Assembly (NCBI GenBank): GCA_964556795.1 | Contig: CAZKWZ010000001.1 | Location: 50,912 to 91,748, forward strand | Direction: 5' to 3' | Origin: an uncultured Gammaproteobacteria bacterium | GTDB lineage: Bacteria > Patescibacteriota > Microgenomatia > UBA12405 | Length of the DNA stretch: 40,837 nucleotides | Shown: positions 14,296 through 28,934 of the stretch, in pieces | Layout of the letters: every line of letters begins with the position of its first letter | Position numbering within the stretch: position 1 is the stretch's first letter | Notes under the pieces: generated by a model | The model's input: the letters and a program-made list of their open reading frames with translations, nothing else | Databases searched by the model: none | Told to the model about the DNA's origin: nothing | Position numbers and translations under genes: made by a program

Positions 14296-16311
14296 TTAAG
14301 GTAGTTGATAGATTTGAGTCCGACCGGATTGAAAAACTGATTTGGCGCCAAGAAGCTCAAAATTTTGAAGATTAATAGTGGCATATTTTTCATATTCCTT
14401 GTCACCGACAACAATATATTTGACTTGATATTTATCTAAAATGGATTTTATTTGATTAAGATCTGAGGACTGATAGATTTCATTGACTTCGTTTTGACGG
14501 GCGGCAGGGCCGTCATAACCACCACGCCACAACCATTCGTGAACTAGCCACCCCTCAATGGTTGGTAGACCTGTGGCCATGGAAACTTGATTAAAGGTAG
14601 TATAGCTATCACCTGGGGCTTCGACGATGTGAGGTTGACCGGTAACATTTTGATTTAGCCAATTGATGGCTAAAAGATTATTGGGGTTAGCCGTTTGAAG
14701 AAACTCTAAACCCCAAAGTCCATGATAGTTTTTCAGACCGCCATAGTATGATCTGACGGCGAAATAGGGATAGGACAGGTGAATAATAAAGATAATAGTA
14801 AATAGGAGTCGATATAGAAAATAACGTCGAAGACGGATAAAAATATAACCGGAAATTAACGAATACATAATAAAGGCCTGATAGACTAACTTAAACATCG
14901 TATTGGCACGACGATACTCTTCAACATAAATATCCTTGATATACATAATTTCCGGTATTAGGATTAAAAGAGTTGCAGTGAGAAAAAGAGCAATGACAAA
15001 ATAATCAGTCGCCAACAATTTTTTCTTTTTTAAATTTTTTAAGAAAAAATAAATAAAGGGTAAAGAAATTAGCCAAAAACCACCATAGAGAATAAAGAGT
15101 TGATAAAAAGGGCTATGAGCATCGGCAATCCTTAGGCCTTCTGCCATGGGAATAAAATGAAGCGAAAAGGGAAGGGTAAATAAGAACCAGGAGGCAATAG
15201 TTAAAATACCGGAAAATATTGTCTGCCAAAAATTTTTGGTTAAGAGCAGCGAGCTGAGGCCAAAAAGAAGGCCATAAACAGCAAAATCCCAAGCATTGGT
15301 CATGAAAGCCATAGAAAGTAAAAACCCGGCGGGGAAAAAAAAGAAAGTTGTCAATCCAGAGCTAGAAGTCAAACCAACAAAGAGAAAAGCAATAAAGAAA
15401 ATAACTAGAGGAATGTCATTCATGTGACCATGAAGATCCGAGACAACAAAACTATAAATGGGAAATTCATGAATAGTTTTATCCTTGGTGTCGGGATCAA
15501 AACCAATAAAACGAGTAGCATCCGGATACCAATAAGTTGATATGGCTTGTGACAAAGTCATCTGTTTTTCAATCATATTACTTCTGACTTTGTAGGCAGT
15601 ATGCAGATTTCCCCCAAAGGTTAATAGGAGTGCAGAAAGAAGAGCACCAAATACATAGAGTCTAAATGCTGGTTTTTTTAGTGAACTGTAAATTAAATTA
15701 GAAACCAGAGAAAAGGCAGAGGTAAAAGTCAGAGCACAAACAGTGGCAATTGATAGGTTATAAGTAATAGCTGAATTAATTCCGGAAATTTTAGTTAAAA
15801 AAGCAAATACAAAGTGGCCAAAATAGTAATAGTTTATTGATTGGCCGGCGTACCACATGTCCGCGGGAGGAAAGTAGCGACTCCTAAGAACAGAGTTGAT
15901 AAAACCCCAGTCCATAAATTTTTCTAAGCCTTCAATATCTGGAGAGAAACCACGAATATAAGACCAAAAAATTAAAATTAAAAGAAAAATTATTTCCTCA
16001 GAAAGAAAGGTTTTCCAATGTTTGGTGAGGGCATTTTTAAAGTAACTTTTATTCTTTTTTATTAAATAAAAATTAATTAAAGCAAAAAGAGCAATTATTA
16101 GATAGATAAAGGGGGTGGTGAACGGAGTAAGATGAAAAATCCCTGAGACTAATAGAAGATAGCTAATAACAAAAAGAGATAAGGTTTTAGAAAAAATATA
16201 ACCTTTATCCCAAAATTTTTTAAAAATAAGAAAAACTAATGGCAAAGATAATGAAGACAGAAAAAAAATACTGGACCACCAAATAAAAATATATTTAAAA
16301 TCAGCAAACAT
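14296..16311 (-). CDS. DUF2298 / Chlor_Arch_YYY-type polytopic membrane protein (predicted GT-C-like glycosyltransferase)
   Basis: 671 aa and highly hydrophobic. NYYYFGH matches the YYYxG motif that names the family. EKFMDWGFINSVLRS loop. C-terminal soluble domain. Confidence 0.8.
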   Translation of the reverse strand: MFADFKYIFIWWSSIFFLSSLSLPLVFLIFKKFWDKGYIFSKTLSLFVISYLLLVSGIFHLTPFTTPFIYLIIALFALINFYLIKKNKSYFKNALTKHWKTFLSEEIIFLLILIFWSYIRGFSPDIEGLEKFMDWGFINSVLRSRYFPPADMWYAGQSINYYYFGHFVFAFLTKISGINSAITYNLSIATVCALTFTSAFSLVSNLIYSSLKKPAFRLYVFGALLSALLLTFGGNLHTAYKVRSNMIEKQMTLSQAISTYWYPDATRFIGFDPDTKDKTIHEFPIYSFVVSDLHGHMNDIPLVIFFIAFLFVGLTSSSGLTTFFFFPAGFLLSMAFMTNAWDFAVYGLLFGLSSLLLTKNFWQTIFSGILTIASWFLFTLPFSLHFIPMAEGLRIADAHSPFYQLFILYGGFWLISLPFIYFFLKNLKKKKLLATDYFVIALFLTATLLILIPEIMYIKDIYVEEYRRANTMFKLVYQAFIMYSLISGYIFIRLRRYFLYRLLFTIIFIIHLSYPYFAVRSYYGGLKNYHGLWGLEFLQTANPNNLLAINWLNQNVTGQPHIVEAPGDSYTTFNQVSMATGLPTIEGWLVHEWLWRGGYDGPAARQNEVNEIYQSSDLNQIKSILDKYQVKYIVVGDKEYEKYATINLQNFELLGAKSVFQSGRTQIYQLP

Positions 16312-16314
16312 ATT

Positions 16315-16884
16315 TTATTTTACAAGGAAAATTATATTAAAAATAACTTGAAGAAAATTATCTATTGGTAGAGAAATATTTAGGGTATGAATAGGTAACC
16401 AAATTATATATCCAATAATAGCGCCGCCTAAAATATCGGCCGGATAATGAAAACCAACCAAGACCCGAAAAGCCAATAGGGATAAGCAAATTACCAAAAA
16501 AAATGGCATGGAAAAAACTGGAAATTGTAGTAGAAAAAGAAAAAAGATAGCGGCTTTTATGGTGTGGCCAGAAGGAAAAGCACCAGAACGATACCACTTG
16601 TCAACTAAACCCGGTGGAGTGACATCGTGTCGTAAAAACATGGGACGACGCCAAAATATTTTTTTCTTGATTAATCTTTCAATAAGCTCAGCAAAAAATG
16701 TAGCTAAAAATAACTGCCAAAAAAGAGAAAATTGATTTTTTATGAGCAAGTAAGAGAGATAAAAAAAGAAAATCCAAATGGCATAATTTAAGACAACTAA
16801 AATTTTTTGACCTAAATCCGATGAAGACATGAGTCGAAGATAATCAGTTTTTGGCTGCCAAAAAAGGTAAGATTTTTTATTCAT
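16315..16884 (-). CDS. PAP2-family lipid phosphate phosphatase
   Basis: PAP2 motifs KKKIFWRRP (Kx6RP), FPSGHT (PSGH) and HYPADILGG (H-x3-D). I prefer the ATG at 16884 (8-nt overlap with the epimerase stop) over the longest ORF start at 16935. Confidence 0.8.
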   Translation of the reverse strand: MNKKSYLFWQPKTDYLRLMSSSDLGQKILVVLNYAIWIFFFYLSYLLIKNQFSLFWQLFLATFFAELIERLIKKKIFWRRPMFLRHDVTPPGLVDKWYRSGAFPSGHTIKAAIFFLFLLQFPVFSMPFFLVICLSLLAFRVLVGFHYPADILGGAIIGYIIWLPIHTLNISLPIDNFLQVIFNIIFLVK

Positions 16885-17896
16885 GAAAGAGAGATAAATT
16901 GTCCTTGACCCAAAGGTATAAGTTTTTAATACCATTTTCTAAATTTATTTTTGGTTCCCAAGAAAAAGTTTTTTTGGCTTTATTAATGTCACTAACATAA
17001 ATTTTTTGATCACCAGGTCTGGCTGGTAAAAACGGAGGATTAAAGGTAATTCCCATGAGTTTTTCTAATTCTTTTTTGAAATCGAAATAGATTGACATGG
17101 TGTTTTGAGGACCACCACCAATATTAAAAACCTGACCACGAGTAACCTGAATATTGTCAGCAGCCATTTGGTAGGCGCAGACTAAATCATCGACATACAA
17201 AATATCACGAACCTGTTTACCATCACCATAAACAGTTATATCTTTACCCGTAAGAATGGCAATAATAAACCAAGCTACCCAGCCCTGATCTTCAACTCCA
17301 AATTGATGTGGGCCATAAATACATGACTGACGAAAGACAATAGTATTTAAATCGTAAATTCGGCTATAGTCTCGAACATATTGATCACCACAACCTTTGC
17401 TACAACCATAGGGAGAATGAAAATCCAGAGGATAATTTTCATCTATACCGGAAAAATCCCGATAGGCGTACCGATTTTCTGATTCGGTCAAGGGGACGTT
17501 TTCCATGCCCCCATAAACCTTATTAGTAGAAGCAAATATTAATGTTGCCTGAGGATTAAAGAGACGAAGGGCTTCAAGAACATTAAAAGTTCCTAGAGCA
17601 TTGACCTCAAAGTCATGACGTGGATTAACCACAGAGGTAGTAACAGCAACCTGGGCGGCTAAATGATAAATCCTGTCAACAGATTTGACAGCATTGTTTA
17701 AAACGTCTAAATCGTTGGTAATATCTGCTTTTATGAATTCTAAGTTGGGATATTTAGAACGTAACCATTCAAGATTTTTAATACTACCGGAGCGGGATAA
17801 GTTATCAAGAATAGTGACTGAATCACCTGAATCAAGTAAGGTATTTGCTAAATTAGAGCCAATAAATCCAGCCCCACCTATGACAAGATGTTTCAT
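16877..17896 (-). CDS. extended SDR, NAD-dependent sugar epimerase (CDP-paratose 2-epimerase-like)
   Basis: GGAGFIGSN Rossmann motif, DNLSRSGS, STNKVYG, LDFHSPYGCSKGCGDQY (YxxxK), DQGWVAWF, GDGKQVRD, FNIGGG. This motif set matches my memory of RfbE-type 2-epimerases. Confidence 0.85.
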   Translation of the reverse strand: MKHLVIGGAGFIGSNLANTLLDSGDSVTILDNLSRSGSIKNLEWLRSKYPNLEFIKADITNDLDVLNNAVKSVDRIYHLAAQVAVTTSVVNPRHDFEVNALGTFNVLEALRLFNPQATLIFASTNKVYGGMENVPLTESENRYAYRDFSGIDENYPLDFHSPYGCSKGCGDQYVRDYSRIYDLNTIVFRQSCIYGPHQFGVEDQGWVAWFIIAILTGKDITVYGDGKQVRDILYVDDLVCAYQMAADNIQVTRGQVFNIGGGPQNTMSIYFDFKKELEKLMGITFNPPFLPARPGDQKIYVSDINKAKKTFSWEPKINLENGIKNLYLWVKDNLSLFHE

Positions 17897-17919
17897 AATG
17901 AGATAATTGTATCAGCTTT

Positions 17920-19014
17920 ATGAAAAGAATCTTGATTGGGGTCACCTATTATTACCCAAACATTTCTGGTGTCAGTGAATACGCAAAAATTTTAGCCGAG
18001 GAGTTGGCTAATTCTAACAAGGTGGAAATAATTTGCGCTCAACACAAAAAGGAACTAAAAAAGGTTGAGAACATAAATGCGGTTAGAGTTGAAAGAATTG
18101 AAGGTTGGCAAATAAGTAAGGGTTTTTTGATGTGGAAATATCCAATAATTAGCTTTAAGGCAGTTAAAAGAAATGTTGTAGTAAATTGTCATTTGCCATC
18201 AATGGAGTCATTTTGGTTGGCATTATGGGGAAAGATTTTAAAAAAGAAAGTGGTTATTACTCATCATTGTGAGTTTACTTATAGCGGTAATTTAAGTAAT
18301 AAAATAATTGCGGTATTATCTTTTCCCAGTCATTTTTTGACCTATCTAATGGCTAATACTATTGTGGCTTATACGGAGGATTATGCCAGACACTCAATGT
18401 TTTTAAAAATTTTTAAGAAGAAAGTTGTCTATATTTTGCCACCGATAAAAATTGAAACTAAGGCTAAAAATTTAGATTTTAGAGAGAAAAAATATAAGAT
18501 TAAAGTAATCGGTTATGTGGGAAGAATTGCCTGGGAAAAGGGTCTAACTTATCTAATTGAAGCAATGAAAAAAATTAATGCTAAATTGATTTTGGCTGGA
18601 CCATACAAAGATGTAGTGGGAGATAAAACTTATGAAACTATTAAAAATAATTTAAGCGAAAAGGTTGAATTACTTGGGCCAATAGCTCATGAAAATTTAG
18701 GTGATTTTTATAAAAAAATTGATTGCTTGGTTTTACCAAGTATCAATAATTTGGAAACTTTTGGAATAGTCCAAGCCGAGGCAATGAAGTGCGGAACTCC
18801 GGTAGTGGCATCAAACCTGCCGGGAGTAAGAGTACCGGTACGACTAACCAAGATGGGAGAAATATGTAGCATTGAGGACTCAGATAATTTAGCAAAAAAG
18901 ATAAATATTGTTTTGAAAAGTGGAAAAAAGTATTATCAAAAAATTGCAGAAAACATAGATTTATTTGATTACAAAAAGACTGTTAAGTCATATGAAAAGG
19001 TATTTGGAAATTAA
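17920..19014 (+). CDS. glycosyltransferase family 4 (GT-B fold)
   Basis: 364 aa. GRIAWEKG and the E-x7-E region FGIVQAEAMKCGTPVVASN. Confidence 0.85.
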   Translation: MKRILIGVTYYYPNISGVSEYAKILAEELANSNKVEIICAQHKKELKKVENINAVRVERIEGWQISKGFLMWKYPIISFKAVKRNVVVNCHLPSMESFWLALWGKILKKKVVITHHCEFTYSGNLSNKIIAVLSFPSHFLTYLMANTIVAYTEDYARHSMFLKIFKKKVVYILPPIKIETKAKNLDFREKKYKIKVIGYVGRIAWEKGLTYLIEAMKKINAKLILAGPYKDVVGDKTYETIKNNLSEKVELLGPIAHENLGDFYKKIDCLVLPSINNLETFGIVQAEAMKCGTPVVASNLPGVRVPVRLTKMGEICSIEDSDNLAKKINIVLKSGKKYYQKIAENIDLFDYKKTVKSYEKVFGN

Positions 19015-19678
19015 AAAACTATTAAAGAGTTATGGTTTTAAAAAAATTTTTTTAGCTGGGATAATGGAGATATATCGTAAATTGTGGTTAGAACTAATCA
19101 ATAACACATATTCGCAAAATGGAGAAGATAAAATCGTTGAAAAAATATTTCCAGTAAATTATGTTGGTAAATACATGGAGATTGGAGCTTATCACCCATC
19201 AAGATTAAGTAATGTTTACAAATTTTACAAAAAGGGTTGGACGGGAATTGTAGTAGAACCTAATCCTGAGGTAAAAGATTTATTTAATAAACTTAGGCCC
19301 AAAGATAAGTTTTATAACCTTGGGATAAGCGACAGAAAAGGCACAATAAACTATTATCAATTTTTAATTCCCGCTTTAAATACATTTTCAAAATATGAGG
19401 CGGATAAAAATATTAAAAATGGACACAAATTAGAGAAAATTATTAAAGTAAAAACCAAAATAATTACCGACCTAGAAGAAACAAATATTGATTTTTTATC
19501 TGTTGATACGGAGGGTTTTGACGAAAAAATTTTAAAAAGCTGGAATTGGAAAAAATGTCGGCCAAGAGCGGTATGTGTAGAAAAAAATAATAAAGAAATA
19601 TTGGGTTTTATGCAAAAAGTTGGTTACAAGCTATGTGAGGAAACAAGATATAACTGGGTTTTAGAGTTGAATATTTAA
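18992..19678 (+). CDS. FkbM-family methyltransferase
   Basis: YMEIGAYHPS, IVVEPNP, GISDRKGTINYY, IDFLSVDTEGFDEKIL. The track start at 18965 is TTG; the first ATG is at 18992. Confidence 0.75.
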   Translation: MKRYLEIKKLLKSYGFKKIFLAGIMEIYRKLWLELINNTYSQNGEDKIVEKIFPVNYVGKYMEIGAYHPSRLSNVYKFYKKGWTGIVVEPNPEVKDLFNKLRPKDKFYNLGISDRKGTINYYQFLIPALNTFSKYEADKNIKNGHKLEKIIKVKTKIITDLEETNIDFLSVDTEGFDEKILKSWNWKKCRPRAVCVEKNNKEILGFMQKVGYKLCEETRYNWVLELNI

Positions 19679-21210
19679 TAATATATTTCGAAATTCCGGG
19701 AATCTCCTAAGGGGCACAAAAATTTATTCTTTTTATCTAAACAGTTTATTTCCAAATTTTTTGACATATTAGTAGACAGAGCGGCGGTATGATCATCTAG
19801 ATAATCCCATGGTAAAAAGTTAATTATTTTATCCGGGAAAAAGAAGTTATATTGTTCTTTGTAATGCAGACAATTAAAATTCTGAGCATTATAGTTTGAT
19901 AAATAAACAGTAATTTCACCGGGAAATTTTTCTTTTTTCATTAGATAAATTAGATGCATTGATAAATAGTCCTTGGCACCACGCCAGTCACCATAGTCAT
20001 TTATATTTATTTTTTGGAAATAAAAGGAATAAAAACAAACTTGAATAATATAAATTCCTATAAGAAATTGGAAGATTAGAGATAAAATTTTGGGGACTGA
20101 TTTTGACAGAAAAGATATTGTTGAAGCAACAAAAGGGAAAAGCACGGGTAATAGCGGCATTAGACGATGATCACCGTTTATAAAGTCTGTAACCGCACTA
20201 TTAGTAAAAGGTATTAGAAGTAAAAGATACATCATCAAAAAAAAGAAACTACGATTTATTTTGTACAAATAAATGATTCCCAAAATAAATAAAATGAAGA
20301 ATGGAAGGGAAAGAAGAGGTTGGTGATCAAAGTAATGACTGGTAGTAGAATTAAAGGCTATAACTTTGAGGGAATCGATATATCTACTAAATAGTGTTGG
20401 AAGGCCAAGATAGCTTGAGTCTAGACGGCTAAGATTCAAGAATATATCAATATTTGTATAAAGTATCCTCGGACCAAAACCAATGATAATCATCAAAATC
20501 GAAAGAAGAATTTTTTTTAATATAGTGAATATGTTTTTAAAAGAGATAAGTTTAATAAAAAGGATAGGGATAAGAATTAAGCCAATTATTTTTACGGAGG
20601 CATGAAAGTTAAAAGAAAAACCAATAAGAAAAGCCAGATAAAAATATTCCTTGGGATAACGTATGGTTCGATAGGAAAAATAGATTAAGAGAGTAGTTAT
20701 GAGACTACTAAAAATAACTACAGTTTCGGTTCGACTGTAAAAGATGTGAAGTGGGTGGCAGGCTAATAAAAATGAAGACCAAAAGGCAATAGTCGAATTG
20801 GTAAATGAATTTAGTAAAAGGTAGAGCAAAACAACATCCAAAACGCCAATAATCGCGGTGGGAATTCTGTAAGAATAGACAGAGTTTTTAAAAATATTAT
20901 AAAAAAAGCTGTTAAGAGTAGGAATAATAAGACCGTGGCTATTGTATCTGCCATAACCAAAGATATTGTCTACCTCCCCACTGGCAATTTGCATAGCGTC
21001 AAAAGCACCATCCCGAATTTCATCGCCTACGGCAACATATGGATAGGTTTTCAGAAACAAAAAATTTACAAATATGGAAACAATGAAAAGAAGGATAAGT
21101 TTAATTTTGGCATTTTTAGATAAATGAAATTCATGTTTGTTGACGAAAAAATAATGAGTAAACAAGGCAAATAATATGGAAAGGTGGATGATTAAAATCA
21201 ACCACATCAT
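19675..21210 (-). CDS. polytopic GT-C-like glycosyltransferase (ArnT/PMT, GT39/GT83-like)
   Basis: 511 aa with more than 10 predicted TM helices. Asp-Glu in the first loop (VAVGDEIRDGA). C-terminal soluble part. Confidence 0.7.
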   Translation of the reverse strand: MMWLILIIHLSILFALFTHYFFVNKHEFHLSKNAKIKLILLFIVSIFVNFLFLKTYPYVAVGDEIRDGAFDAMQIASGEVDNIFGYGRYNSHGLIIPTLNSFFYNIFKNSVYSYRIPTAIIGVLDVVLLYLLLNSFTNSTIAFWSSFLLACHPLHIFYSRTETVVIFSSLITTLLIYFSYRTIRYPKEYFYLAFLIGFSFNFHASVKIIGLILIPILFIKLISFKNIFTILKKILLSILMIIIGFGPRILYTNIDIFLNLSRLDSSYLGLPTLFSRYIDSLKVIAFNSTTSHYFDHQPLLSLPFFILFILGIIYLYKINRSFFFLMMYLLLLIPFTNSAVTDFINGDHRLMPLLPVLFPFVASTISFLSKSVPKILSLIFQFLIGIYIIQVCFYSFYFQKININDYGDWRGAKDYLSMHLIYLMKKEKFPGEITVYLSNYNAQNFNCLHYKEQYNFFFPDKIINFLPWDYLDDHTAALSTNMSKNLEINCLDKKNKFLCPLGDSRNFEIYY

Positions 21211-22901
21211 TTGGTAGTTTTCTCAAAAAGAATAACACTGGGGTGGTCATAAACTGTAAAGGCCTCCTCTGCTGTATCATCACGAAGATAGATTCCTGGA
21301 TAAAGACAATTATTATCTTTTTCGTACCAATAGTTTTTAACACCTGGATAATTGCTCGGACCAAAGTAATAACAGGATTTTAAAAAAGGTAAAGTAAAAC
21401 CCGGATAGGAAACAAATTTTTTTATAAAGGTAAAATTTGTTTTTTCAGAAAAAAGGTTTTCATAAAATTTTGAGGCTAAGGGATATTTATCCGGAACCCG
21501 GGGAATCGAAGCCCAGAGGCGATTGCTCGACATAATCATAAAATCTATCTCAGATAAAGAGTTATTGATTTTTGTCCATTTTTCCGAAGTGTCTGGATCA
21601 AAAAAGGCTAGGGAAATATTTTTATAGTTGGAATAACCTACCGGTAAAGCGTCATCCCAATATTCACTACTAAGAACTTTAAAGCTAGGAATATTGTTGA
21701 TAATCCAAGCAGAAGCTTGGACCCGAGAAACTGGATGAGCATAGATAGAAAGGAAAGCAAGGGCATATAAAGACATTAAGAAAAATATGGTTATAGATAG
21801 GCGTTTACCAACTTTAAAATAAGCGATTAATGCGGCAAAGAGCAAAGATAAAAAAGGATAAATTGGTAAGAGATAACGCATAGCATGGACATATTGGATT
21901 GATTGATAAACAAAAAGAAACAATACCCAAACGATAGCGATTGATATCGAATTAAGTTTTATCTTTATTTTTTTAGAAAATAAGTAACGAAAAATTAAAA
22001 ATAAAAACGGGATAGAAAACGGGAGACCAAAACCCCAAATGAAAGTATTTTTAGTAGCGTTTAATAAGGGGAGACGATTAATCCACTGAACACCCGGTGG
22101 GTAATATATGTTGGGATTGGAATAATTTGCCAGTGTTTTAAGGTTGTTTACAAAAACCGGATTAATCCCAAAGGGACCAATAAAGGCATAGGGCTGAAAA
22201 ATTCTAAAAACTATAAAAGAAAAAATCAGACTTAATATGATCTTGGGGATAAATGATGTTCTATCTTTGGTGTCTAAAAATAATTTAAGTAGAAATAAAA
22301 ATATAATTGGGGCAAAATAGATGGCAGAAATTTTACAGGACATAGCTAGACCAAAAGCCAAAAACGCAGGAAAAAATAGATTATAGGAAAAAAGAGTAAA
22401 GGTCAGTAGAATAAAAAAATTCAAAAAAGTGTCAACTGCATAAAAATGTGATAGCTGGATAGGGAGGACTAAAAGAGCGTAAATGATGGATGGGAAATAT
22501 TGATATTTATTTTTTAGAAATTTAGAGGCGATAAAATACAACAAAATGACATTTCCGGAATCAAAAAGAGCTGAAAGAATCCTACCAACAATGGTGATTT
22601 GATTGTAATTGTCCCAATTAAAAATTGTAACCAAAATTTTTGTTAAAAATATAGGAAAGGTACCATAAACATAAAAACGATATTGTGAATAGTTGAACGG
22701 ATTTAATGGTGAGGAGGCAGTGTCAAAATACTGAGAAAAGGACGTGGGTAGTTTTATATCATTAGTAACCATCGTTAAAAATCTTTCGTCAGGGTGAAGA
22801 TGATTGTTCGAATCCCAATTAAGACCATAGATTCTCAAAAGAAAGGCAACAACGAAAATAAACAGAATTAAAAATAAATTTTTTTTAGAGTAACTTTTCA
22901 T
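21207..22901 (-). CDS. GT-C glycosyltransferase, family 39-like
   Basis: 564 aa, polytopic. First-loop motif GLNWDSNNHLHPDERF. C-terminal AEEAFTVYDHPSVILFEK. Paralogue of the next gene. Confidence 0.8.
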   Translation of the reverse strand: MKSYSKKNLFLILFIFVVAFLLRIYGLNWDSNNHLHPDERFLTMVTNDIKLPTSFSQYFDTASSPLNPFNYSQYRFYVYGTFPIFLTKILVTIFNWDNYNQITIVGRILSALFDSGNVILLYFIASKFLKNKYQYFPSIIYALLVLPIQLSHFYAVDTFLNFFILLTFTLFSYNLFFPAFLAFGLAMSCKISAIYFAPIIFLFLLKLFLDTKDRTSFIPKIILSLIFSFIVFRIFQPYAFIGPFGINPVFVNNLKTLANYSNPNIYYPPGVQWINRLPLLNATKNTFIWGFGLPFSIPFLFLIFRYLFSKKIKIKLNSISIAIVWVLFLFVYQSIQYVHAMRYLLPIYPFLSLLFAALIAYFKVGKRLSITIFFLMSLYALAFLSIYAHPVSRVQASAWIINNIPSFKVLSSEYWDDALPVGYSNYKNISLAFFDPDTSEKWTKINNSLSEIDFMIMSSNRLWASIPRVPDKYPLASKFYENLFSEKTNFTFIKKFVSYPGFTLPFLKSCYYFGPSNYPGVKNYWYEKDNNCLYPGIYLRDDTAEEAFTVYDHPSVILFEKTTK

Positions 22902-24336
22902 ATTGATTGATGTTTAATGGCTGGATTTTTTTGTAAAGACGAATGGTAGGACGATCAAAAACAGACCAAGTTTCTTCGGCATTTTCTGGATTTAAAAACA
23001 GATCCGGAATGGGAGAAAATTCCTTAATTTTTTCAAAGCCTAAACTGCCATTAAAAAGATTCTGGTAATACTTATAATCATAATTCATAAATACCCGCCT
23101 AGAAGGAATGATAATATAGTTTGAGGTGGTCAGGGCTTCACTTAGTGTTTGGGGATTGTATTTATAAAAGTCATAATTAATTATATTTAGGTGATGGGTT
23201 AAGACAGGAATATCAACGACATTTCCTGATTCTGAGAGGATTGCAGAGTCAGGTGGTAAATTTTTAACCAGGTATTCAGAAGCCAAAAATCGAGAATCGG
23301 GAACAAAATAGCGAGTAAGGAAGAATAAACCAGGGATAATAGCAATGATTAACAATTTAGGAAAACGTTTTATAAATATTGTAGCCACCAATGGAATAAC
23401 AAAAAATAAGGGGGACATAAAACGAGTCCATTTGACATATAATTGTCCAAAATACAGGAAATAAACTAAACAAGTAGAAAGGACTATCCAAAAAAATTTT
23501 TTATTTTTTATTTGATTGGTTTGAAATTGAAAAAGTGAAATAAGAGCGAAAACGATGACCGGTAAACCTATGGTATAGGGAAAGATTTTCGTAATTTGAA
23601 ACAAGTAGGGAATAGTGTGTTGAAATTGAGCGGTGTAAAAAACCGGCAAAGAACCGTTGGCGACAGTAGTTTCATAATTCATTGCAGAAATAAAATCAGG
23701 AAAAGAATATATGCTATATGGGGACAAAATAATGGCATATAAAGCTGAGAAAAGGGCATAGGGAAATAGACACCAAAACCTAGTTAACAAAGCAGCAAAA
23801 ATGATTGGCAAGGCAAAAACGGCTCCGGAAATTTTCGTAGCTATGGCAGCACCAGTACACAATGCAGCAATAAAAAAGTAACGTAAGCGGGGACGTTCTA
23901 AAATTAGTTTGGTTAAATAAAGATTGACAGAAAAAATAAAAATCAAAAGACTTTCGGTTGTTCCAAAATGAGCCAACTGAATTAAACCAGGAGTAAAGAT
24001 AAGCAAAATAACAAAAGAAAGCTTGGAGTATATTTTATAAAAAAAATAGAGAGAAGCAACTGAAAAAAAGGCAGAGTAGAAACGTAATATAAAAATAGAA
24101 TTAGCAAAATTATTATCAAGTCCAACAGCTTTAAGGGAGTAATAACCCAAATATAATGGGAATTGGCCATAGGAAAAAAAATGGGGATTTAGATTATTTG
24201 AGTTAAGTTGGGAGATAGAAACGGCCATATTATTTTCATCAGGATTGAAGAAATAATTACTGCCCCAATTAAGGCCAAAAAATCTAGTGAAAATTGCCAA
24301 AATAACTATAAGGAGAACTCGATATTTAAAGGACAT
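22885..24336 (-). CDS. GT-C glycosyltransferase, family 39-like (paralogue)
   Basis: 483 aa, polytopic. GLNWGSNYFFNPDENN. C-terminal AEETWSVFDRPTIRLYKK. Confidence 0.8.
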   Translation of the reverse strand: MSFKYRVLLIVILAIFTRFFGLNWGSNYFFNPDENNMAVSISQLNSNNLNPHFFSYGQFPLYLGYYSLKAVGLDNNFANSIFILRFYSAFFSVASLYFFYKIYSKLSFVILLIFTPGLIQLAHFGTTESLLIFIFSVNLYLTKLILERPRLRYFFIAALCTGAAIATKISGAVFALPIIFAALLTRFWCLFPYALFSALYAIILSPYSIYSFPDFISAMNYETTVANGSLPVFYTAQFQHTIPYLFQITKIFPYTIGLPVIVFALISLFQFQTNQIKNKKFFWIVLSTCLVYFLYFGQLYVKWTRFMSPLFFVIPLVATIFIKRFPKLLIIAIIPGLFFLTRYFVPDSRFLASEYLVKNLPPDSAILSESGNVVDIPVLTHHLNIINYDFYKYNPQTLSEALTTSNYIIIPSRRVFMNYDYKYYQNLFNGSLGFEKIKEFSPIPDLFLNPENAEETWSVFDRPTIRLYKKIQPLNINQYEKLL

Positions 24337-25231
24337 ACATGATAGTAATCATCATCAAACCCCAAATTAAAACAGCCCCTAATAGAGGGATATCGGTAGC
24401 AATCACCCTTTCAGGTCTCTCCCCTTCCTGCATCTCAAAAATAATCTGACCATATCGCATGATGCCAAAGATGACAGGTAAAAGAGTAATCATCCACCAC
24501 TTACGATCAAGAGCTGATGGATAATTATTTAACAAAAATTGATGAATAATACCCTCAAATTTAATTGGTTCAGCTAAAAATGTAAACATGGCATAACTAA
24601 TCAAAGTACAAACTGCAAATATAGTGGTATAAAAACTAAGTAAACTTTTGTTATAACCCTCAAGTGCTTTACGGGTAATTTTACCGGTATTATACAATTC
24701 ACTTCGACGTTTACCGCTAGCGATAAAGAGAGACAAAAATATGACAGCTAACATTATCCAAACCGGGAGATGATAACCAGTAGCAACTTCGCCAGCATAA
24801 GTTCGGATAATAAAAAACAAAGCAATTCCCATGATATCTAACAGAGCCTTCTTTTTTATAAAAAATGTGTAAAGATATTGCATCAAAATAAAAATAATGG
24901 AGATAATAAAAAAGGTTGAATTTATGGAATAGGCAATAAAAAGACCGAGAATTACAAGTAGAGCTGAGGTTAAAATGGCACTATTTTTATTTACTGCACC
25001 CCTAGCAAGAGGACGATTTTTTTTTATTGGATGAAGGCGATCTTTGTCGACATCAATTAAATCGTTAATTAAATACGATGATGACGAGAGAAAGCAAAAA
25101 CATATAAATGCCCAAACACTCGAGGAAAATACCCGTTCATTAAATAATTGTCCGGTTAAAATTGCCGCGGCAAATAAACTTAGGTTTTTTATCCATTGAT
25201 TGGGACGAAGAGCTTCAATTAGTGCTATCAC
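24326..25231 (-). CDS. UbiA-superfamily polyprenyl-phosphate phosphoribosyltransferase-like protein (decaprenyl-phosphate 5-phosphoribosyltransferase type)
   Basis: 301 aa with about 8-9 TM helices. N-terminal RPNQWIKN and Asp-rich motif NDLIDVDKDRLHPIKKNRPLARG. GTG start (cac at 25229..25231), 1 nt after the upstream stop. Confidence 0.8.
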   Translation of the reverse strand: MIALIEALRPNQWIKNLSLFAAAILTGQLFNERVFSSSVWAFICFCFLSSSSYLINDLIDVDKDRLHPIKKNRPLARGAVNKNSAILTSALLVILGLFIAYSINSTFFIISIIFILMQYLYTFFIKKKALLDIMGIALFFIIRTYAGEVATGYHLPVWIMLAVIFLSLFIASGKRRSELYNTGKITRKALEGYNKSLLSFYTTIFAVCTLISYAMFTFLAEPIKFEGIIHQFLLNNYPSALDRKWWMITLLPVIFGIMRYGQIIFEMQEGERPERVIATDIPLLGAVLIWGLMMITIMYVL

Positions 25232-25232
25232 A

Positions 25233-26267
25233 CTACAATAATATCAAAAATCCGAATAAGGTGATGATACCACCAATAATAGTCAAGACCTGTGATGGGA
25301 AATCGACACCGGATTCAGGCAAAATAATTCTAGTGGGGCTAGGACCTTCGGCGATAACGAGGGTAGGAACTGGAGTATTGGTTGGAGGCACTGGTGTAGA
25401 AGTCGGACTTGCCTGACAGGTACAATCGGTTTCATTAGGACATGATGGATTTCGACAGAAACCACTATGACAAAAGAGATCTGAACCACAATTGATATTG
25501 GAACCACAGGTACCTCCACAAGCATTAGGTGGAGATGTGGTTGGAGTTGGAGTGGGAGTATTGGTTGGAGTAAGAGTCGGAGTCAAGGTTGGGGTAGGGG
25601 TAGGAGTGGGAGTATTGGTTGGAGTAAGAGTCGGAGTCAAGGTTGGAGTAGGGGTGGGGGTGGGAGTATTGGTTGGAGTAAGGGTAGGAGTCAAGGTTGG
25701 GGTAGGAGAAGGACCACGAGTGGGACTGGGGGTTACCGAAGGAATTCTGGTAGGGGTTGGTGATGGACCCCGGGTGGGAGTTGGTGATGGGGTACGAGGA
25801 GTTGGAGTATTTGAAGGATGATGAGGAACTGGAGTATTAGTGGGATTACAATCAGTACAATTGTTTCCGGTACAAGCACAAAGTCCATCACAACTAGCAC
25901 CTTGACCAATTGTCCAGACACCGTTATTACAGTGACATCTTTTGTAACCACTGGGCATAACATCGGGACATTGGGCAACACATTGAACACCACCAACAGT
26001 ATAAATACATTGGTTTGTTCCAGGAATTGGATCACAGGCACTATATCCACCAGCTTGATGGCAACTCTTGTATCCTGAACAATTATATCCACCTGAAGAA
26101 CCGCTGAGGGTATTACATGAAAGCTGACCAACACCGGAACAAGCGCCATAATGGGCAGCTTTATTACGATTATCCTGATTAGTTTTGGCTAAAAATACTC
26201 CCCCAATTAAAGAGAGTAATAAGAACAATAAACTTAATATTCCATATCTTTTTCCGTATCTTTTCAT
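25233..26267 (-). CDS. Cys-rich / Pro-Thr-repeat cell-surface protein with LPESG-type C-terminal sorting-like signal
   Basis: Signal/TM helix; Cys-rich N-terminal domain (about 20 Cys); residues about 141-247 are almost pure P/T/S; a second Cys-rich module ([22 protein letters not shown]...); C-terminus [30 protein letters not shown]. Confidence 0.8.
25552..25713 (-). repeat. 3 x 54-bp in-frame tandem repeat encoding ([18 protein letters not shown])x3
   Basis: Units at 25552..25605, 25606..25659 and 25660..25713 (plus strand gtgggagtattggttggagtaagagtcggagtcaaggttgg...). Units 1 and 2 differ at a few bases; unit 3 is more diverged. Confidence 0.85.
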
Positions 26268-27559
26268 TTTCGGTAATAATATAAAGATACACTAAATAAT
26301 AGCGAAGATAAAATAACTAAGAAAAATGTTGGTAGAGTTACACCACTTTGATATAAAGATGAGGTAGTTGATGGTTTAGCTACTCTTATGGTTGGAACTC
26401 TTGTGGGAGGAATTTTGGTAGGAGGAATAGCTGTGGGAACTGATGTTATTTTGGCGGTTGGTTGGGCTTTTTTAGTAGGAAGTGCAGTTGGGGTTTTAGT
26501 AGGTGTTTTAGTTGGAATGATGGTTGCCGAAGGGGTAGCGCTAAAGGATAAATAACTATCGCTGACTGAGACTGAAAATTTTCTGGTAATAGTTTTGTTT
26601 TGATATGTTAAAACAAGGTTATGCAATCCAGAGGATAAATTAGTGGATGGGGACCAGTGCCAGGTATTGTTTGAAGGAACTGTGATATTGTAGCTACTAT
26701 TATCAAGTGCTAGTTGAAAAGTAACACCAGCTGGACCCTGACCAAAAATATCTGGTTTGGCGGTGTTAAGTGTTTCAGAGTCTTTTGGACTAGTAATTGT
26801 GAAACTGACTGCTGAAACGGCGGTACCAGCTCCAAGATCAGTAGAACTTTTTGGTGTGGTAGGAATTGCAGAAAAATTTTTTTGACCAATGATTATGTCA
26901 GGCACAGGGTCATTATTGTCGGAACGATTGGTAATTTGAGTTAGCTTGGCATCAGGGGAATAAACGATTATATCTTCGTCAACCGGAGTGGTGGGGTTGA
27001 ACCAGTCAGTTTTATTCTCATTAAAACTGGTAGCAAAAGAGATATTCCAATTGCCATCTTTATTGGAAAAAGCCGAAAGGGCTTGCCCACCGGGAATTGT
27101 CAAAAAGACAATTGCGCCAGAAACCGGTTTGAGACCGGAATCCAAAATTTTTCCCCAGGCAAGATTTGAGTCGGGAATTGGGGAATTTGGTTTTAAGGTA
27201 GTAGTCAAAACATATTCCGGAGGAGAATAGGTAACACTTCCTGAAATTAGGCTAAATTTATATGTAGTAGTCGGTTTAAGATTGTTAATTTTAAAATAAT
27301 GGGTATTGGAAACCGTTGAGGAATCTTGGTAAATCCGTCCATCAATTGAAAGAGTGGCTAAACAAGATGTGGCAGTAGTTAAAAATGAAAAATCAAAGGA
27401 TCCATAAGTCAAATTGGCTATTTGAGGATTAACAGGTTCACAACTACCACTAGCTTTGGTAGAAAGTGAGGTGGTTCTTGAGGAAAGGTAAATGCCAGCA
27501 GCTAAGATAGTCAGTAGCAAAATTATTCCCAAGATAGTTGGGAAACGTTTCTCTTTCAT
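26264..27559 (-). CDS. multi-domain cell-surface protein (FN3-like, carboxypeptidase-regulatory-like and Ig-like modules, P/T/K-rich stalk, C-terminal anchor)
   Basis: N-terminal TM/signal. FN3-like [30 protein letters not shown]...DGNWNISF (CarboxypepD_reg-like). Stalk [20 protein letters not shown].... C-terminus [31 protein letters not shown]. Confidence 0.75.
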
Positions 27560-27765
27560 AAATTAGTTTCTTGCCTCTTTTCAATTTCATCCAAAACCTG
27601 CGTGTCCAGATTGGGTGAAACTGAACGAATAAGTGGGCTATTTTTAGCTTCGGTTGTAGCTTTCATCAAATTGTTATAACTTTGTTGAACTACAAAGAAA
27701 AATATAGCTAGAAAGGTACAAATCCCTAAAAATACAAAATATTGTGATAATTTATTTTTTAACAT
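27556..27765 (-). CDS. small single-pass membrane protein (69 aa), hypothetical
   Basis: One TM helix (YFVFLGICTFLAIFFFVV). Overlaps both neighbours (14 nt and 4 nt) in the same operon-like string. Confidence 0.5.
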   Translation of the reverse strand: MLKNKLSQYFVFLGICTFLAIFFFVVQQSYNNLMKATTEAKNSPLIRSVSPNLDTQVLDEIEKRQETNL

Positions 27766-28351
27766 CCGGCTTCCAAAAATAAACCTTTAAAGGTAGGACT
27801 ATATTGATTTGGCCAGGTTGATCTTCGTTGACGGAGAAGGTTATACCATCAATATTGATTAGACGTCGATTTTGTAACAAATCGGAAAATAAAGCTACAG
27901 CTGACTGATAACTAGTACTGGCATTTAAATTGGTAGTAAAGTAATTTTGATCTTTAATAACGTAGTTAATTTTTGGAAAAGAAATTTGGCGATTATTTGC
28001 CAAAGAAATTATTTGGGAGTTAGCATGATAAAAGCGGGGATTAAGGGGTAAACTGGATTCAACTAGGGAATACCTTTCCTGAACTTGTGAGAAAAGATCC
28101 TGGGCAACAATAACGTCGTTAATTTTTGTCTTGAGCTGAGTACTTAACAATTTTTTTGAATTTATATCACCAATTAGGGCAGAAATGGTTAAAAATGTAG
28201 GTTTAATGGCAAAAAGGACAAAAAAGGAAATCAGGAAAAAAGTGGCACCAATTTCTACTGATTTGACGATTTTTTGATTCTCGCGCTTCTTTTGGATATA
28301 TTCCAAAAGCGGAGTGGCTTGAGAACTGAGACTATTTAAATTTAGGTTCAT
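27752..28351 (-). CDS. pilO: PilO-like type IV pilus alignment-complex protein
   Basis: Architecture is short cytoplasmic N-terminus, one TM, a coiled coil, then an alpha/beta domain. Segments SLPLNPRFYHANSQIISLA and SYQSAVALFSDLLQNRRLINIDGITF resemble PilO. Lies directly after the pilN-like gene (ATGA overlap). Confidence 0.55.
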   Translation of the reverse strand: MNLNLNSLSSQATPLLEYIQKKRENQKIVKSVEIGATFFLISFFVLFAIKPTFLTISALIGDINSKKLLSTQLKTKINDVIVAQDLFSQVQERYSLVESSLPLNPRFYHANSQIISLANNRQISFPKINYVIKDQNYFTTNLNASTSYQSAVALFSDLLQNRRLINIDGITFSVNEDQPGQINIVLPLKVYFWKPDVKK

Positions 28352-28908
28352 ATTTTTTTAAAGGTAACTGATACGGTTAAATAATACTTACTATCCTTGG
28401 TCTTTTTTTCAATTTTTTGAACTTCGATATTAGTAACATCGGGATTCAACTTAATATTGGTAATAAAATCAATGATTGGATCCTCTTGATATGAATATAG
28501 CTGGGAGGCGATGATTATTAGGGATGTTTTTTTATCACGGTTAAAGGTAAGATTTTGCAGATAAATACCGTTGGGTAAACTTTGAATAAAAGAATTTAAA
28601 ATGGTGGTATATTTTGGTTCAGATTGATAAAAATTTTTGATATATGCCAAACGTTGTTGGAGGGAATTGTAATCTGTTTCAAAATCTTTAGTGCTATTTA
28701 AGATAGCTTTTTGCTGTCGTAATATTTCTGATAAATCGGCATTTTTTCTATCAAGCCAGAATCTAGAGAGAAAAGCTCCAATAACAATAAATTCGGTAAT
28801 GATAATTACTACCCGACCAACGGTGGTAACCCAACGAAGAAGACGGGCAATAAAACTGTTGTTATCGGCTTCGTTGGGTAGTAATGAAATCTCCTTTGTT
28901 GAAGGCAT
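28348..28908 (-). CDS. pilN: PilN-like type IV pilus alignment-complex protein
   Basis: N-terminal MPSTKEISLLPNE resembles the conserved PilN INLLP PilM-binding peptide, followed by one TM helix and a coiled coil. The track start 28929 is TTG; the first ATG is at 28908. Confidence 0.6.
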   Translation of the reverse strand: MPSTKEISLLPNEADNNSFIARLLRWVTTVGRVVIIITEFIVIGAFLSRFWLDRKNADLSEILRQQKAILNSTKDFETDYNSLQQRLAYIKNFYQSEPKYTTILNSFIQSLPNGIYLQNLTFNRDKKTSLIIIASQLYSYQEDPIIDFITNIKLNPDVTNIEVQKIEKKTKDSKYYLTVSVTFKKI

Positions 28909-28934
28909 ACTACTTAACAGTATAAACAAAAGAT

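Follow-up and report, generated by a model that had tools for sequence, protein, structure and literature searches.

A predicted lipid-linked pentofuranose glycosylation island in a member of Candidatus Shapirobacteria

The stretch of contig CAZKWZ010000001.1 analyzed here (the window, 40,837 nucleotides) encodes an envelope-glycosylation island in which a UbiA-superfamily enzyme is combined with four predicted GT-C glycosyltransferases, a PAP2 lipid phosphatase, a short-chain dehydrogenase/reductase (SDR), a cytoplasmic GT4 glycosyltransferase and an FkbM-family methyltransferase (Table 1). We propose, with a probability of about 0.6, that this island is the version of lipid-linked pentofuranose glycosylation used by Candidatus Shapirobacteria of the candidate phyla radiation (CPR), comprising a polyprenyl-P-ribofuranose donor, GT-Cs and an accessory module. 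Under this proposal, the UbiA-type enzyme would move ribose-5-phosphate from phosphoribosyl pyrophosphate (PRPP) onto polyprenyl phosphate, a step suggested by the full conservation of the active site of the mycobacterial enzyme Rv3806c, and the PAP2 protein would then strip the 5'-phosphate to yield polyprenyl-P-ribofuranose, as indicated by synteny and by analogy with mycobacterial Rv3807c. After flipping by a carrier, GTC8/GTC7, the DUF2298 protein and the strain-specific GTC6 would put the presumed pentofuranose on presumed extracytoplasmic acceptors. In the accessory module, the most probable task of the SDR is to supply the GT4 by 2-epimerization of a hexose in nucleotide-activated form (glucose to mannose type), which would serve to add or diversify a second sugar or a primer of glycolipid or glycan nature. 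A first-pass annotation of this DNA had likewise proposed a polyprenyl-P-pentose pathway; its logic, as judged by analogy with known systems, is upheld by the co-occurrence of a PRPP-dependent UbiA-type transferase, a phosphatase and GT-Cs, and every open reading frame (ORF) on which it drew is found, at the coordinates it gave, in the ORF list and translations. Its assignment of a central role to the SDR fares less well, as detailed below.

The identity of the donor-forming enzyme is the foundation of this reading. The UbiA-like protein is recovered by the Pfam UbiA hidden Markov model (HMM; 1.2e-25) and scores 155–201 bits against the three NCBIfam decaprenyl-phosphate phosphoribosyltransferase (DPPRS) models, as opposed to at most 58 bits against all other UbiA types. 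Its best match in the PDB is Rv3806c (8J8J; 1.8e-36), with an ordinary UbiA protein coming next (4TQ3; 5e-9), and the Asp-rich motif quoted in the first-pass annotation, NDLIDVDKDRLHPIKKNRPLARG, is indeed present in its translation. The PRPP/Mg ligands of Rv3806c, namely R22, K28, Y70, N73, D77, K87, R90, Q135, Y138, K143 and Y157 (PMC10994848), align respectively with R9, K15, Y53, N56, D60, K70, R73, Q118, Y121, K126 and F140 of the window protein, and all 11 positions are counted as kept. These include both the Mg/pyrophosphate site (R22, N73, D77, K87, R90, Y138 and K143 of Rv3806c) and the phosphoribose-specific contacts K28, Y70, Q135 and Y157, whose conservation does not extend to ordinary UbiA enzymes; the Tyr-to-Phe change at the Y157 position is also found within mycobacteria (PMC10994848). 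Its sequence thus classes the protein with the Rv3806c-type polyprenyl-phosphate phosphoribosyltransferases, rather than with quinone or haem enzymes, just as the first-pass annotation had it. The family is large, with an exhaustive search recovering 1,008 clusters (50% identity) at E<=1e-30.

That the protein might instead be an ordinary prenyltransferase of quinone, haem or archaeal-type lipid synthesis, leaving the GT-Cs to use hexose donors, is suggested by the label '4-hydroxybenzoate polyprenyltransferase' that Joint Genome Institute (JGI) pipelines give to many homologues, and by the score against the decaprenyl-phosphate phosphoribosyltransferase model NF008978, which narrowly misses the equivalog cut-off (200.7 against 207 bits); that against NF008977 also falls below its equivalog threshold (189.9 against 234 bits). 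However, sub-cut-off scores of this kind are consistent with a distant orthologue, and the retention of every phosphoribose- and pyrophosphate-binding residue of Rv3806c, the gap between ~200 bits for the DPPRS models and <=58 bits for the other UbiA types, and the name decaprenyl-phosphate phosphoribosyltransferase that NCBI gives to some close Shapirobacteria homologues together make this alternative highly improbable. An ordinary quinone or haem prenyltransferase, in particular, is ruled out by the HMM scores, the PDB ranking and the active-site residues. A further homologue, 31% identical to the window protein over 99% of its length, is encoded by MT837543.1, a 6.6-kb unannotated human-faecal 'Bacteriophage sp.' record, and may belong to a phage-borne pentofuranose system of the kind mentioned by Kelly et al. 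(PMC11127046).

The second component is the set of four large polytopic membrane proteins, which the first-pass annotation had recognized as GT-Cs by their first-loop motifs. These motifs (PDERF, PDENN and GDEIRD, together with YYYFG) are all present in the translations, and the assignment is now borne out along three lines. GTC6 is recognized by Pfam PMT_2 with a score exceeding the cut-off (40.9 bits), and GTC8 comes slightly under it (25.3 bits). GTC8 and the GTC7 family are full-length paralogues (hhalign probability 100%, E 1.8e-65) that have a C-terminal domain with the signature AEE..V.DHP in common. GTC7 itself has no Pfam match; homologues at ~50% identity carry PMT/PMT_2 domains (PF02366/PF13231), and some of these are named GT39. 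As sequence searches of the PDB returned no matches for either GTC7 or the DUF2298 protein, we turned to structure prediction for these two. The AlphaFold2 model of GTC7 (predicted local distance difference test score, pLDDT, 84.9; predicted template-modelling score, pTM, 0.88) was compared with the PDB using Foldseek, and all 24 matches at E<=1e-3 were GT-C enzymes (STT3, ALG9, AglB, ArnT, AftA, PglB, Pmt4 and AftD). The model of the DUF2298 protein (pLDDT 76.8, pTM 0.84) has its most conserved external loops in low-confidence regions, and each of its seven matches at the same threshold contains a GT-C (DPY19, STT3-containing oligosaccharyltransferase complexes and AftA). Hence, all four proteins are assigned to the GT-C fold: GTC7 and the DUF2298 protein by predicted structure, GTC6 by Pfam and GTC8 by paralogy.

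The DUF2298 protein is a full member of the Chlor_Arch_YYY family, as indicated by both PF10060 (7.6e-94; 315.8 bits against a cut-off of 27.8) and TIGR03662 (451.8 bits against 300.25), and by the YYYxG motif, which appears as INYYYFG. The function of that family is unassigned, whereas the window member, which lies within a pentofuranose-type island, is predicted to adopt the GT-C fold and has PAP2 as a conserved partner, giving the family a concrete, testable role as a GT-C transferase paired with a lipid phosphatase. We also compared an alignment of DUF2298 proteins built from the loci with GTC7 by hhalign; the match was confined to a stretch by which certain long DUF2298 proteins are extended at the N terminus, and is uninformative on the window protein. 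In these long versions (L103:17520-20096, L091:9205-11541 and L015:15361-18177), the extra N-terminal region is a homologue of the extracytoplasmic domain found at the C terminus of GTC7 (hhalign probability 97.9%, E 4.8e-13). Two loci (L099 and L103) encode giant GTC7-like proteins of ~1,700 residues. Some Shapirobacteria DUF2298 homologues are fused to LysM (PF01476; P0403, P0408, P0423, P0425, P0431, P0432, P0491 and P0508), which hints at an enzyme working beside peptidoglycan.

The coupling of these two components is also a feature of the recently described three-component pentofuranose systems, in which a polyprenyl-phosphate phosphoribosyltransferase (PPPRS) with a phosphatase domain and a GT-C, along with a predicted MATE flippase, add alpha-ribofuranose (Ribf) outside the membrane (Kelly et al., PNAS 2024, PMC11127046). 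We examined its conservation by scanning one genome per GTDB species with a query alignment of four UbiA sequences, which returned 80 loci, and added three further loci (L084–L086) from two close-homologue lookups; the ORFs of all loci were searched with the window proteins and their neighbours were clustered. The gene order UbiA–GTC8–GTC7 proved invariant in 16 species-representative loci from Shapiro- and Gottesmanbacteria and in three further loci, so that GTC8 adjoins UbiA in at least 16 loci, matching the encoding of a GT-C with the PPPRS in the three-component systems. A PAP2–DUF2298 pair lies downstream in at least eight loci (among L004, L006, L008–L011 and L084–L086). This recurrence argues that the clustering in the island is more than chance. 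The conserved core is thus UbiA with the paralogous GT-C pair, usually accompanied by PAP2 and DUF2298.

By contrast, the stretch between GTC7 and PAP2 varies by strain: it is empty in some loci and in others contains a GT4, class-I methyltransferases, additional GT-Cs of the PMT_2 type or a DUF362 protein. None of the 83 UbiA loci carries an orthologue of the window SDR, FkbM or GTC6; this includes L004 and L084, whose UbiA proteins are respectively 78% and 86% identical to that of the window and which have the same PAP2–DUF2298 pair. Class-I methyltransferases fill the FkbM slot in related loci, and orthologues of the window GT4 are found in seven of them (161–466 bits). The accessory module of SDR, GT4, FkbM and GTC6 is therefore a strain-variable cassette set between GTC7 and PAP2. 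The G+C content of 18001-24000, which covers GT4, FkbM, GTC6 and GTC7, is 0.30–0.33 as against 0.36–0.39 in the flanks, in line with horizontal exchange of the cassette.

Beyond these close relatives, UbiA orthologues occur in neighbourhoods that differ in detail. In Levybacteria, a PMT_2 GT-C, a GT2 and an MraY/WecA-type enzyme are found nearby, and the Levy- and Daviesbacteria loci (L021–L063; e.g., L034:5591-9987) have a different, conserved block with the order TatD, membrane GT2, PMT_2 GT-C, 117-residue membrane protein, MraY/WecA-type transferase and UbiA; genes for GroEL, LepA and MurJ also lie near this block. In Clostridium, the neighbours of the orthologue are a small transporter of the SMR/EamA type and a polytopic membrane protein that no Pfam model recognizes; in deltaproteobacteria, the orthologue adjoins an LPG_synthase_TM protein. 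The Levybacteria, Clostridium and deltaproteobacterial neighbourhoods follow the same three-component logic.

The third component, the phosphatase, raises the question of whether the island is one system or two. The PAP2 protein has a clear domain match (2.4e-12) and complete catalytic motifs (KxxxxxxRP, PSGH and RxxxxxHxxxD), which substantiates its earlier annotation as a lipid phosphatase. Its best NCBIfam matches, though weak, are of the undecaprenyl-diphosphatase and PgpB types, and in the related loci it always adjoins DUF2298 rather than UbiA. These features would suit a picture of two independent pathways made adjacent by chance or synteny: UbiA with GTC8/GTC7 would serve pentofuranose transfer, and SDR–GT4–FkbM–GTC6–PAP2–DUF2298 would make a lipid-linked hexose or lipoglycan, with PAP2 recycling polyprenyl diphosphate. 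In the same direction point the convergent plus-strand pair that splits the two minus-strand gene blocks of the island, and the occurrence of an SDR–GT4–methyltransferase–PMT_2 GT-C–DUF2298 module without a nearby UbiA in L091, L099, L101, L104, L105 and L119. Nevertheless, in at least eight loci UbiA, GTC8/7, PAP2 and DUF2298 have remained linked even though the genes between them vary, and in L103 a UbiA homologue lies two genes away from the SDR–GT4 module. Further, in loci lacking PAP2 (L017–L020) its place is filled by a small protein, c41 (178–193 residues), with HAD-like motifs (DxDGV...S...K...ED[D/N]), which may be a case of one phosphatase having displaced another, as among the known systems (PMC11127046). 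HMM and PDB profile searches with c41 returned nothing significant. Taken together, we regard the separation of the island into two pathways as unlikely.

The SDR was central to the first-pass annotation, which had matched it to sugar 2-epimerases of the CDP-paratose epimerase type and proposed that this single NAD-dependent enzyme replaces the mycobacterial DprE1/DprE2 pair. The match itself is confirmed: its best PDB matches are the CDP-tyvelose 2-epimerases TaTyvE (9RL0; 8e-102) and StTyvE (1ORR; 1e-93), to which it is 47–49% identical over its full length, and the best 4-epimerase follows at 4e-43. This ranking rules out its being a 4-epimerase or dehydratase. The TyvE reaction proceeds by transient NAD-dependent oxidation and reduction at C2, and, with residue roles taken from TaTyvE (PMC13098431), the window SDR keeps the T124/Y164/K168 triad, the TNK segment (N125 and K126), R237, R299, D204 and Q205. 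Of these, the nucleotide-pyrophosphate contacts K126, R237 and R299, along with D204 and Q205, are invariant among the aligned relatives. Four features are changed: Y203E at the cytosine-covering position, M85V (VAM to VAV), S193C and the replacement of E300-S301 by P-G. The first is seen in 68 of 69 relatives without a linked GT4 and in all eight with one, and the other three are common to all 77 aligned relatives. Hence, the window SDR belongs to a distinct TyvE-like subfamily with an intact phosphate-binding apparatus, the nucleotide specificity of which may differ from that of TyvE; unlike in the CDP-tyvelose systems, no CDP-dideoxyhexose genes lie near it. The retained residues point to an enzyme that most probably acts on a nucleotide sugar.

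The neighbourhoods of its relatives point the same way. A scan of metagenomes, with the window SDR and the two solved TyvEs as the query alignment, returned 80 loci, the closest relatives therein being <=60% identical to the window protein. A GT4 lies within a few kb of the SDR in 34 of these loci, being directly adjacent in 11, and eight (L091, L099, L101, L103–L105, L119 and L135) pair the SDR with an orthologue of the window GT4 (180–224 bits). In six of the eight, all but L119 and the short L135, the two genes form a module LepA–LPG_synthase_TM–SDR–GT4, with a class-I methyltransferase and/or GT-Cs (PMT_2 or giant GTC7-like ones) usually coming next; L091, L103 and L119 also have DUF2298. 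The remaining SDR loci look like ordinary sugar-nucleotide clusters, in which a 4,6-dehydratase-like SDR is found along with several GT4s, GT2, methyltransferases and radical SAM enzymes. A phosphoribosyltransferase-type UbiA is found near the SDR in just one or two of the 80 loci, namely L103 (160 bits, opposite strand) and perhaps L141 (104 bits). By these associations, the SDR gene is an accessory one, specific to the strain, and in evolution its partner appears to be the GT4.

A different SDR does track this type of UbiA. In L085 and L086, whose UbiA is 87% identical to that of the window, the GT-C/PAP2 slot holds a 351-residue extended SDR (L085:15753-16808) that, being only 25% identical to the window SDR, is not its orthologue. 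It is 60% identical to an SDR whose gene directly follows that of the UbiA orthologue in an unclassified large-genome bacterium with contigs of 3.6–6.5 Mb (L065:10883-11920; also L068), and homologues occur on a Natronococcus megaplasmid (L167) and a Streptomyces plasmid (L168) beside a UbiA with the motif ND..D...DR.(H/N)P.K..RP. The Natronococcus locus further includes a PHP phosphatase, an LPG_synthase_TM protein and two GT39-type GT-Cs, and the Streptomyces locus GT2s and an LPG_synthase domain protein. The best NCBIfam match of this second family is HpnA-like and under the cut-off. Judging by this distribution, the second family is the true partner of this UbiA type across CPR, the large-genome bacterium, Streptomyces and haloarchaea, and its loci have the look of pentofuranose systems that bring along an epimerase and reach into Archaea. 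In other loci (L014, L016–L019, L022, L023 and L045; e.g., L017:3442-4668), the gene directly upstream of UbiA encodes an FAD/NAD amine-oxidase-type flavoprotein (PRK07233, 327 bits). Found in Gottesmanbacteria and some Shapirobacteria, this protein is not DprE1-like and might act on a lipid-linked pentose as an alternative redox partner.

These distributions bear directly on the proposal that the TyvE-like SDR is a single 2'-epimerase converting polyprenyl-P-ribofuranose to polyprenyl-P-arabinofuranose in place of DprE1/DprE2, which would make the GT-Cs arabinofuranosyltransferases. The oxidation and reduction at C2 carried out by TyvE (PMC13098431) is the very transformation required, and there is a precedent in ORF13, a single cytoplasmic SDR that sets xylofuranose (Xylf) versus Ribf and is the proposed epimerizer of undecaprenyl-P-Ribf (PMC11127046). 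Moreover, the SDR gene lies inside the island, overlapping PAP2 and sharing a slot with the UbiA-linked SDR of L085; the window is devoid of DprE1- and DprE2-like genes; and in L103 and L141 no more than 4 kb separates a TyvE-like SDR from a UbiA homologue. Yet the SDR is found in none of the 83 UbiA-orthologue loci, even in strains with the same PAP2–DUF2298 pair, and its relatives are mostly in nucleotide-sugar clusters beside a GT4, its recurrent neighbour. The invariance of the K126/R237/R299 pyrophosphate contacts and of D204/Q205 also speaks against a lipid-linked ribose as substrate, as do the pyranose sugar nucleotides used by the characterized TyvE-family members and the existence of another SDR family that tracks UbiA from CPR to Natronococcus. 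We therefore part from the first-pass annotation on this point: the island position and the ORF13 precedent leave the lipid-epimerase role some probability, and we judge it to be a decidedly unlikely one. Its extension to a one-enzyme lipid-linked arabinofuranose (Araf) donor feeding the arabinosylation of Pro/Thr-rich surface proteins by the PMT_2-like and DUF2298 GT-Cs is judged to be about as unlikely. On the three points that the first-pass annotation had singled out as decisive, namely the grouping of the UbiA-like protein, the grouping of the SDR and the fold of the membrane proteins, the results side with its assignments.

Returning to the proposal of a ribofuranose-based system, neither DprE1 (FAD_binding_4 oxidase) nor DprE2 (a classical SDR) has a counterpart among the island proteins, the other ORFs of the window or the related loci inspected, and the donor is therefore probably ribose. 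As most related loci lack an epimerase and the window SDR is partnered with a GT4, the default donor is most likely ribofuranose rather than arabinofuranose. Several observations nonetheless weigh against this proposal, in addition to the narrowly missed NF008978 cut-off. No sugar-nucleotide pyrophosphorylase for the presumed substrate of the SDR is encoded in the 40-kb window, and the SDR occupies the exact slot where a sister strain has the UbiA-linked SDR family. PAP2 active sites usually face outward, which is awkward for dephosphorylation in the cytoplasm; the same applies to Rv3807c. The island encodes no dedicated flippase of the MATE, SMR, GtrA or LPG_synthase_TM kind, and the window lacks homologues of the SMR and LPG_synthase_TM proteins seen in other loci; the nearby MurJ is probably needed for lipid II. 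Finally, GTC7 and DUF2298 orthologues also occur in SDR–GT4 loci that have no UbiA within 10 kb (L091 and L099).

Among characterized systems, the closest parallels are the O1/O2 systems of Citrobacter youngae (PMC11127046), which likewise combine a PRPP-dependent UbiA-type synthase, a 5'-phosphatase step, outside-acting GT-Cs and strain-variable epimerase genes. They differ in having the phosphatase as a fused HAD domain instead of a separate PAP2 and a MATE/SMR-type flippase in the locus, for which the island has no equivalent. The island, in turn, has four GT-Cs of the PMT_2/GT39-like and DUF2298 types, and its accessory SDR is TyvE-like and presumably not ORF13-like. Moreover, a lipopolysaccharide O-antigen cannot be the acceptor in a CPR bacterium. 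With the mycobacterial decaprenyl-P-arabinose pathway, the island shares an Rv3806c-type transferase with an identical PRPP site, a PAP2-class phosphatase (Rv3807c) and clustered GT-Cs, but the latter are not close to Emb/Aft, with Foldseek finding general GT-C similarity only (TM-score 0.35–0.5), and the DprE1/DprE2 of that pathway are missing from both the window and the related loci inspected. The pilin arabinosylation system of Pseudomonas aeruginosa PA7/Pa5196 (PPPRS, DprE1/E2 homologues and TfpW) also joins a lipid-linked pentofuranose donor to a GT-C; in the island, which lacks DprE1/E2 homologues, no pilin was identified as acceptor, and the possible targets are Thr/Ser-rich surface proteins, with a PilN-like gene lying 3 kb upstream.

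Three-component pentofuranose systems are already known to be widespread, with optional epimerases, including auxiliary single-SDR ones, changing the pentose, and with DprE1/E2 homologues accompanying those that contain Araf (PMC11127046). The island probably belongs to this class, as a member from a lineage, CPR, for which no such system had been described. The novelty claimed in the first-pass annotation thus stands for the lineage, in that our literature search found no description of this kind of pathway in Patescibacteria, and does not stand for the type of system; the island overturns no established knowledge. It does extend the three-component concept to CPR and, via the second SDR family, to haloarchaeal and Streptomyces plasmids. 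As CPR/Patescibacteria are uncultured and host-dependent, with an almost uncharted cell-surface chemistry, the island offers a clue to their surface. A conserved UbiA of this type accompanied by GT-Cs recurs in Shapiro-, Gottesman-, Levy- and Daviesbacteria, from which a pentofuranose-decorated envelope would be standard in Microgenomates, and the variable cassette of methyltransferases, GT4, extra GT-Cs and SDRs behaves like an antigenic-diversity locus.

Table 1. Genes of the predicted glycosylation island (window coordinates), and examples of c41 in related loci (locus coordinates)
Feature	Position	Strand	Basis
DUF2298/Chlor_Arch_YYY membrane protein, predicted GT-C fold	14296..16311	-	PF10060 and TIGR03662, structure model
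PAP2 lipid phosphatase, candidate 5'-phosphatase of polyprenyl-P-ribose-5-P	16315..16884	-	PAP2 HMM and catalytic motifs
TyvE-like NAD-dependent sugar 2-epimerase-family SDR, strain-variable	16877..17896	-	PDB matches 9RL0, 1ORR
Cytoplasmic GT4 (GT-B) glycosyltransferase	17920..19014	+	Glycos_transf_1 4e-32
FkbM-family SAM methyltransferase, strain-variable	18965..19678	+	Methyltransf_21 1.9e-20
GTC6, extra predicted GT-C (PMT_2), strain-variable	19675..21210	-	PMT_2 3.1e-10, 40.9 bits
GTC7, predicted GT-C, paralogue of GTC8	21207..22901	-	Structure model and domains of homologues
GTC8, predicted GT-C, PMT_2/GT39-like, directly after the UbiA gene	22885..24336	-	Paralogy to GTC7, PMT_2 25.3 bits
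Predicted polyprenyl-phosphate 5-phosphoribosyltransferase (PPPRS/DPPRS type, UbiA superfamily)	24326..25231	-	NF008978, PDB 8J8J
Secreted Cys-rich Pro/Thr-repeat surface protein, LPESG end, candidate acceptor	25233..26267	-	Translation
PT2, secreted Ig-like Pro/Thr-rich protein, C-terminal membrane anchor, candidate acceptor	26264..27559	-	Big_13 1.5e-4 (weak), synteny
c41	L017:9968-10504, L018:17994-18572, L019:12061-12597, L020:5905-6438, L008:16013-16594		HAD-like motifs

Read from high to low coordinates, the minus strand of the island encodes the two Pro/Thr-rich proteins, UbiA, the three GT-C genes and then SDR, PAP2 and DUF2298, with the convergent plus-strand pair GT4 and FkbM sitting between the GT-C genes and the SDR; both members of this pair, named in the first-pass annotation, have standard Pfam matches. 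By the ORF coordinates, GTC8 overlaps the UbiA stop codon and the SDR gene overlaps that of PAP2. The genes abut or overlap throughout 14296-27559, and there is thus no free coding space for further genes. A scan for promoters and terminators gave counts at the level of chance. Homologues of three island proteins are labelled Candidatus Shapirobacteria or Patescibacteria in public records, which places the window in a Microgenomates/CPR genome with a G+C content of ~36%.

The favoured candidate acceptors, by inference only, are the Pro/Thr-rich, sortase-type surface proteins encoded upstream of UbiA. The nearer of the two contains three 54-bp tandem repeats (25549-25713) with an 18-residue unit and ends in LPESG followed by a hydrophobic tail, an arrangement that resembles a sortase signal. 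Similar proteins are found upstream of UbiA in nine related loci, and an orthologue of PT2 in 14. Together with this adjacency, the LysM-fused DUF2298 proteins and the PMT-like character of the GT-Cs provide hints as to the acceptor. Pro/Thr-rich proteins with LPxTG-like ends are also seen near the Levybacteria UbiA orthologue (L034, LPPTG). Beyond the Pro/Thr-rich proteins, MurJ (28935-30542) is the nearest MOP-family protein to the island, and two small membrane proteins (27752-28929) lie between; one of these (28348-28929) matches PilN with 23.3 bits, barely clearing the Pfam cut-off of 22.8, and in most of the Shapirobacteria loci the pair (clusters c11 and c13) shows synteny with the island.

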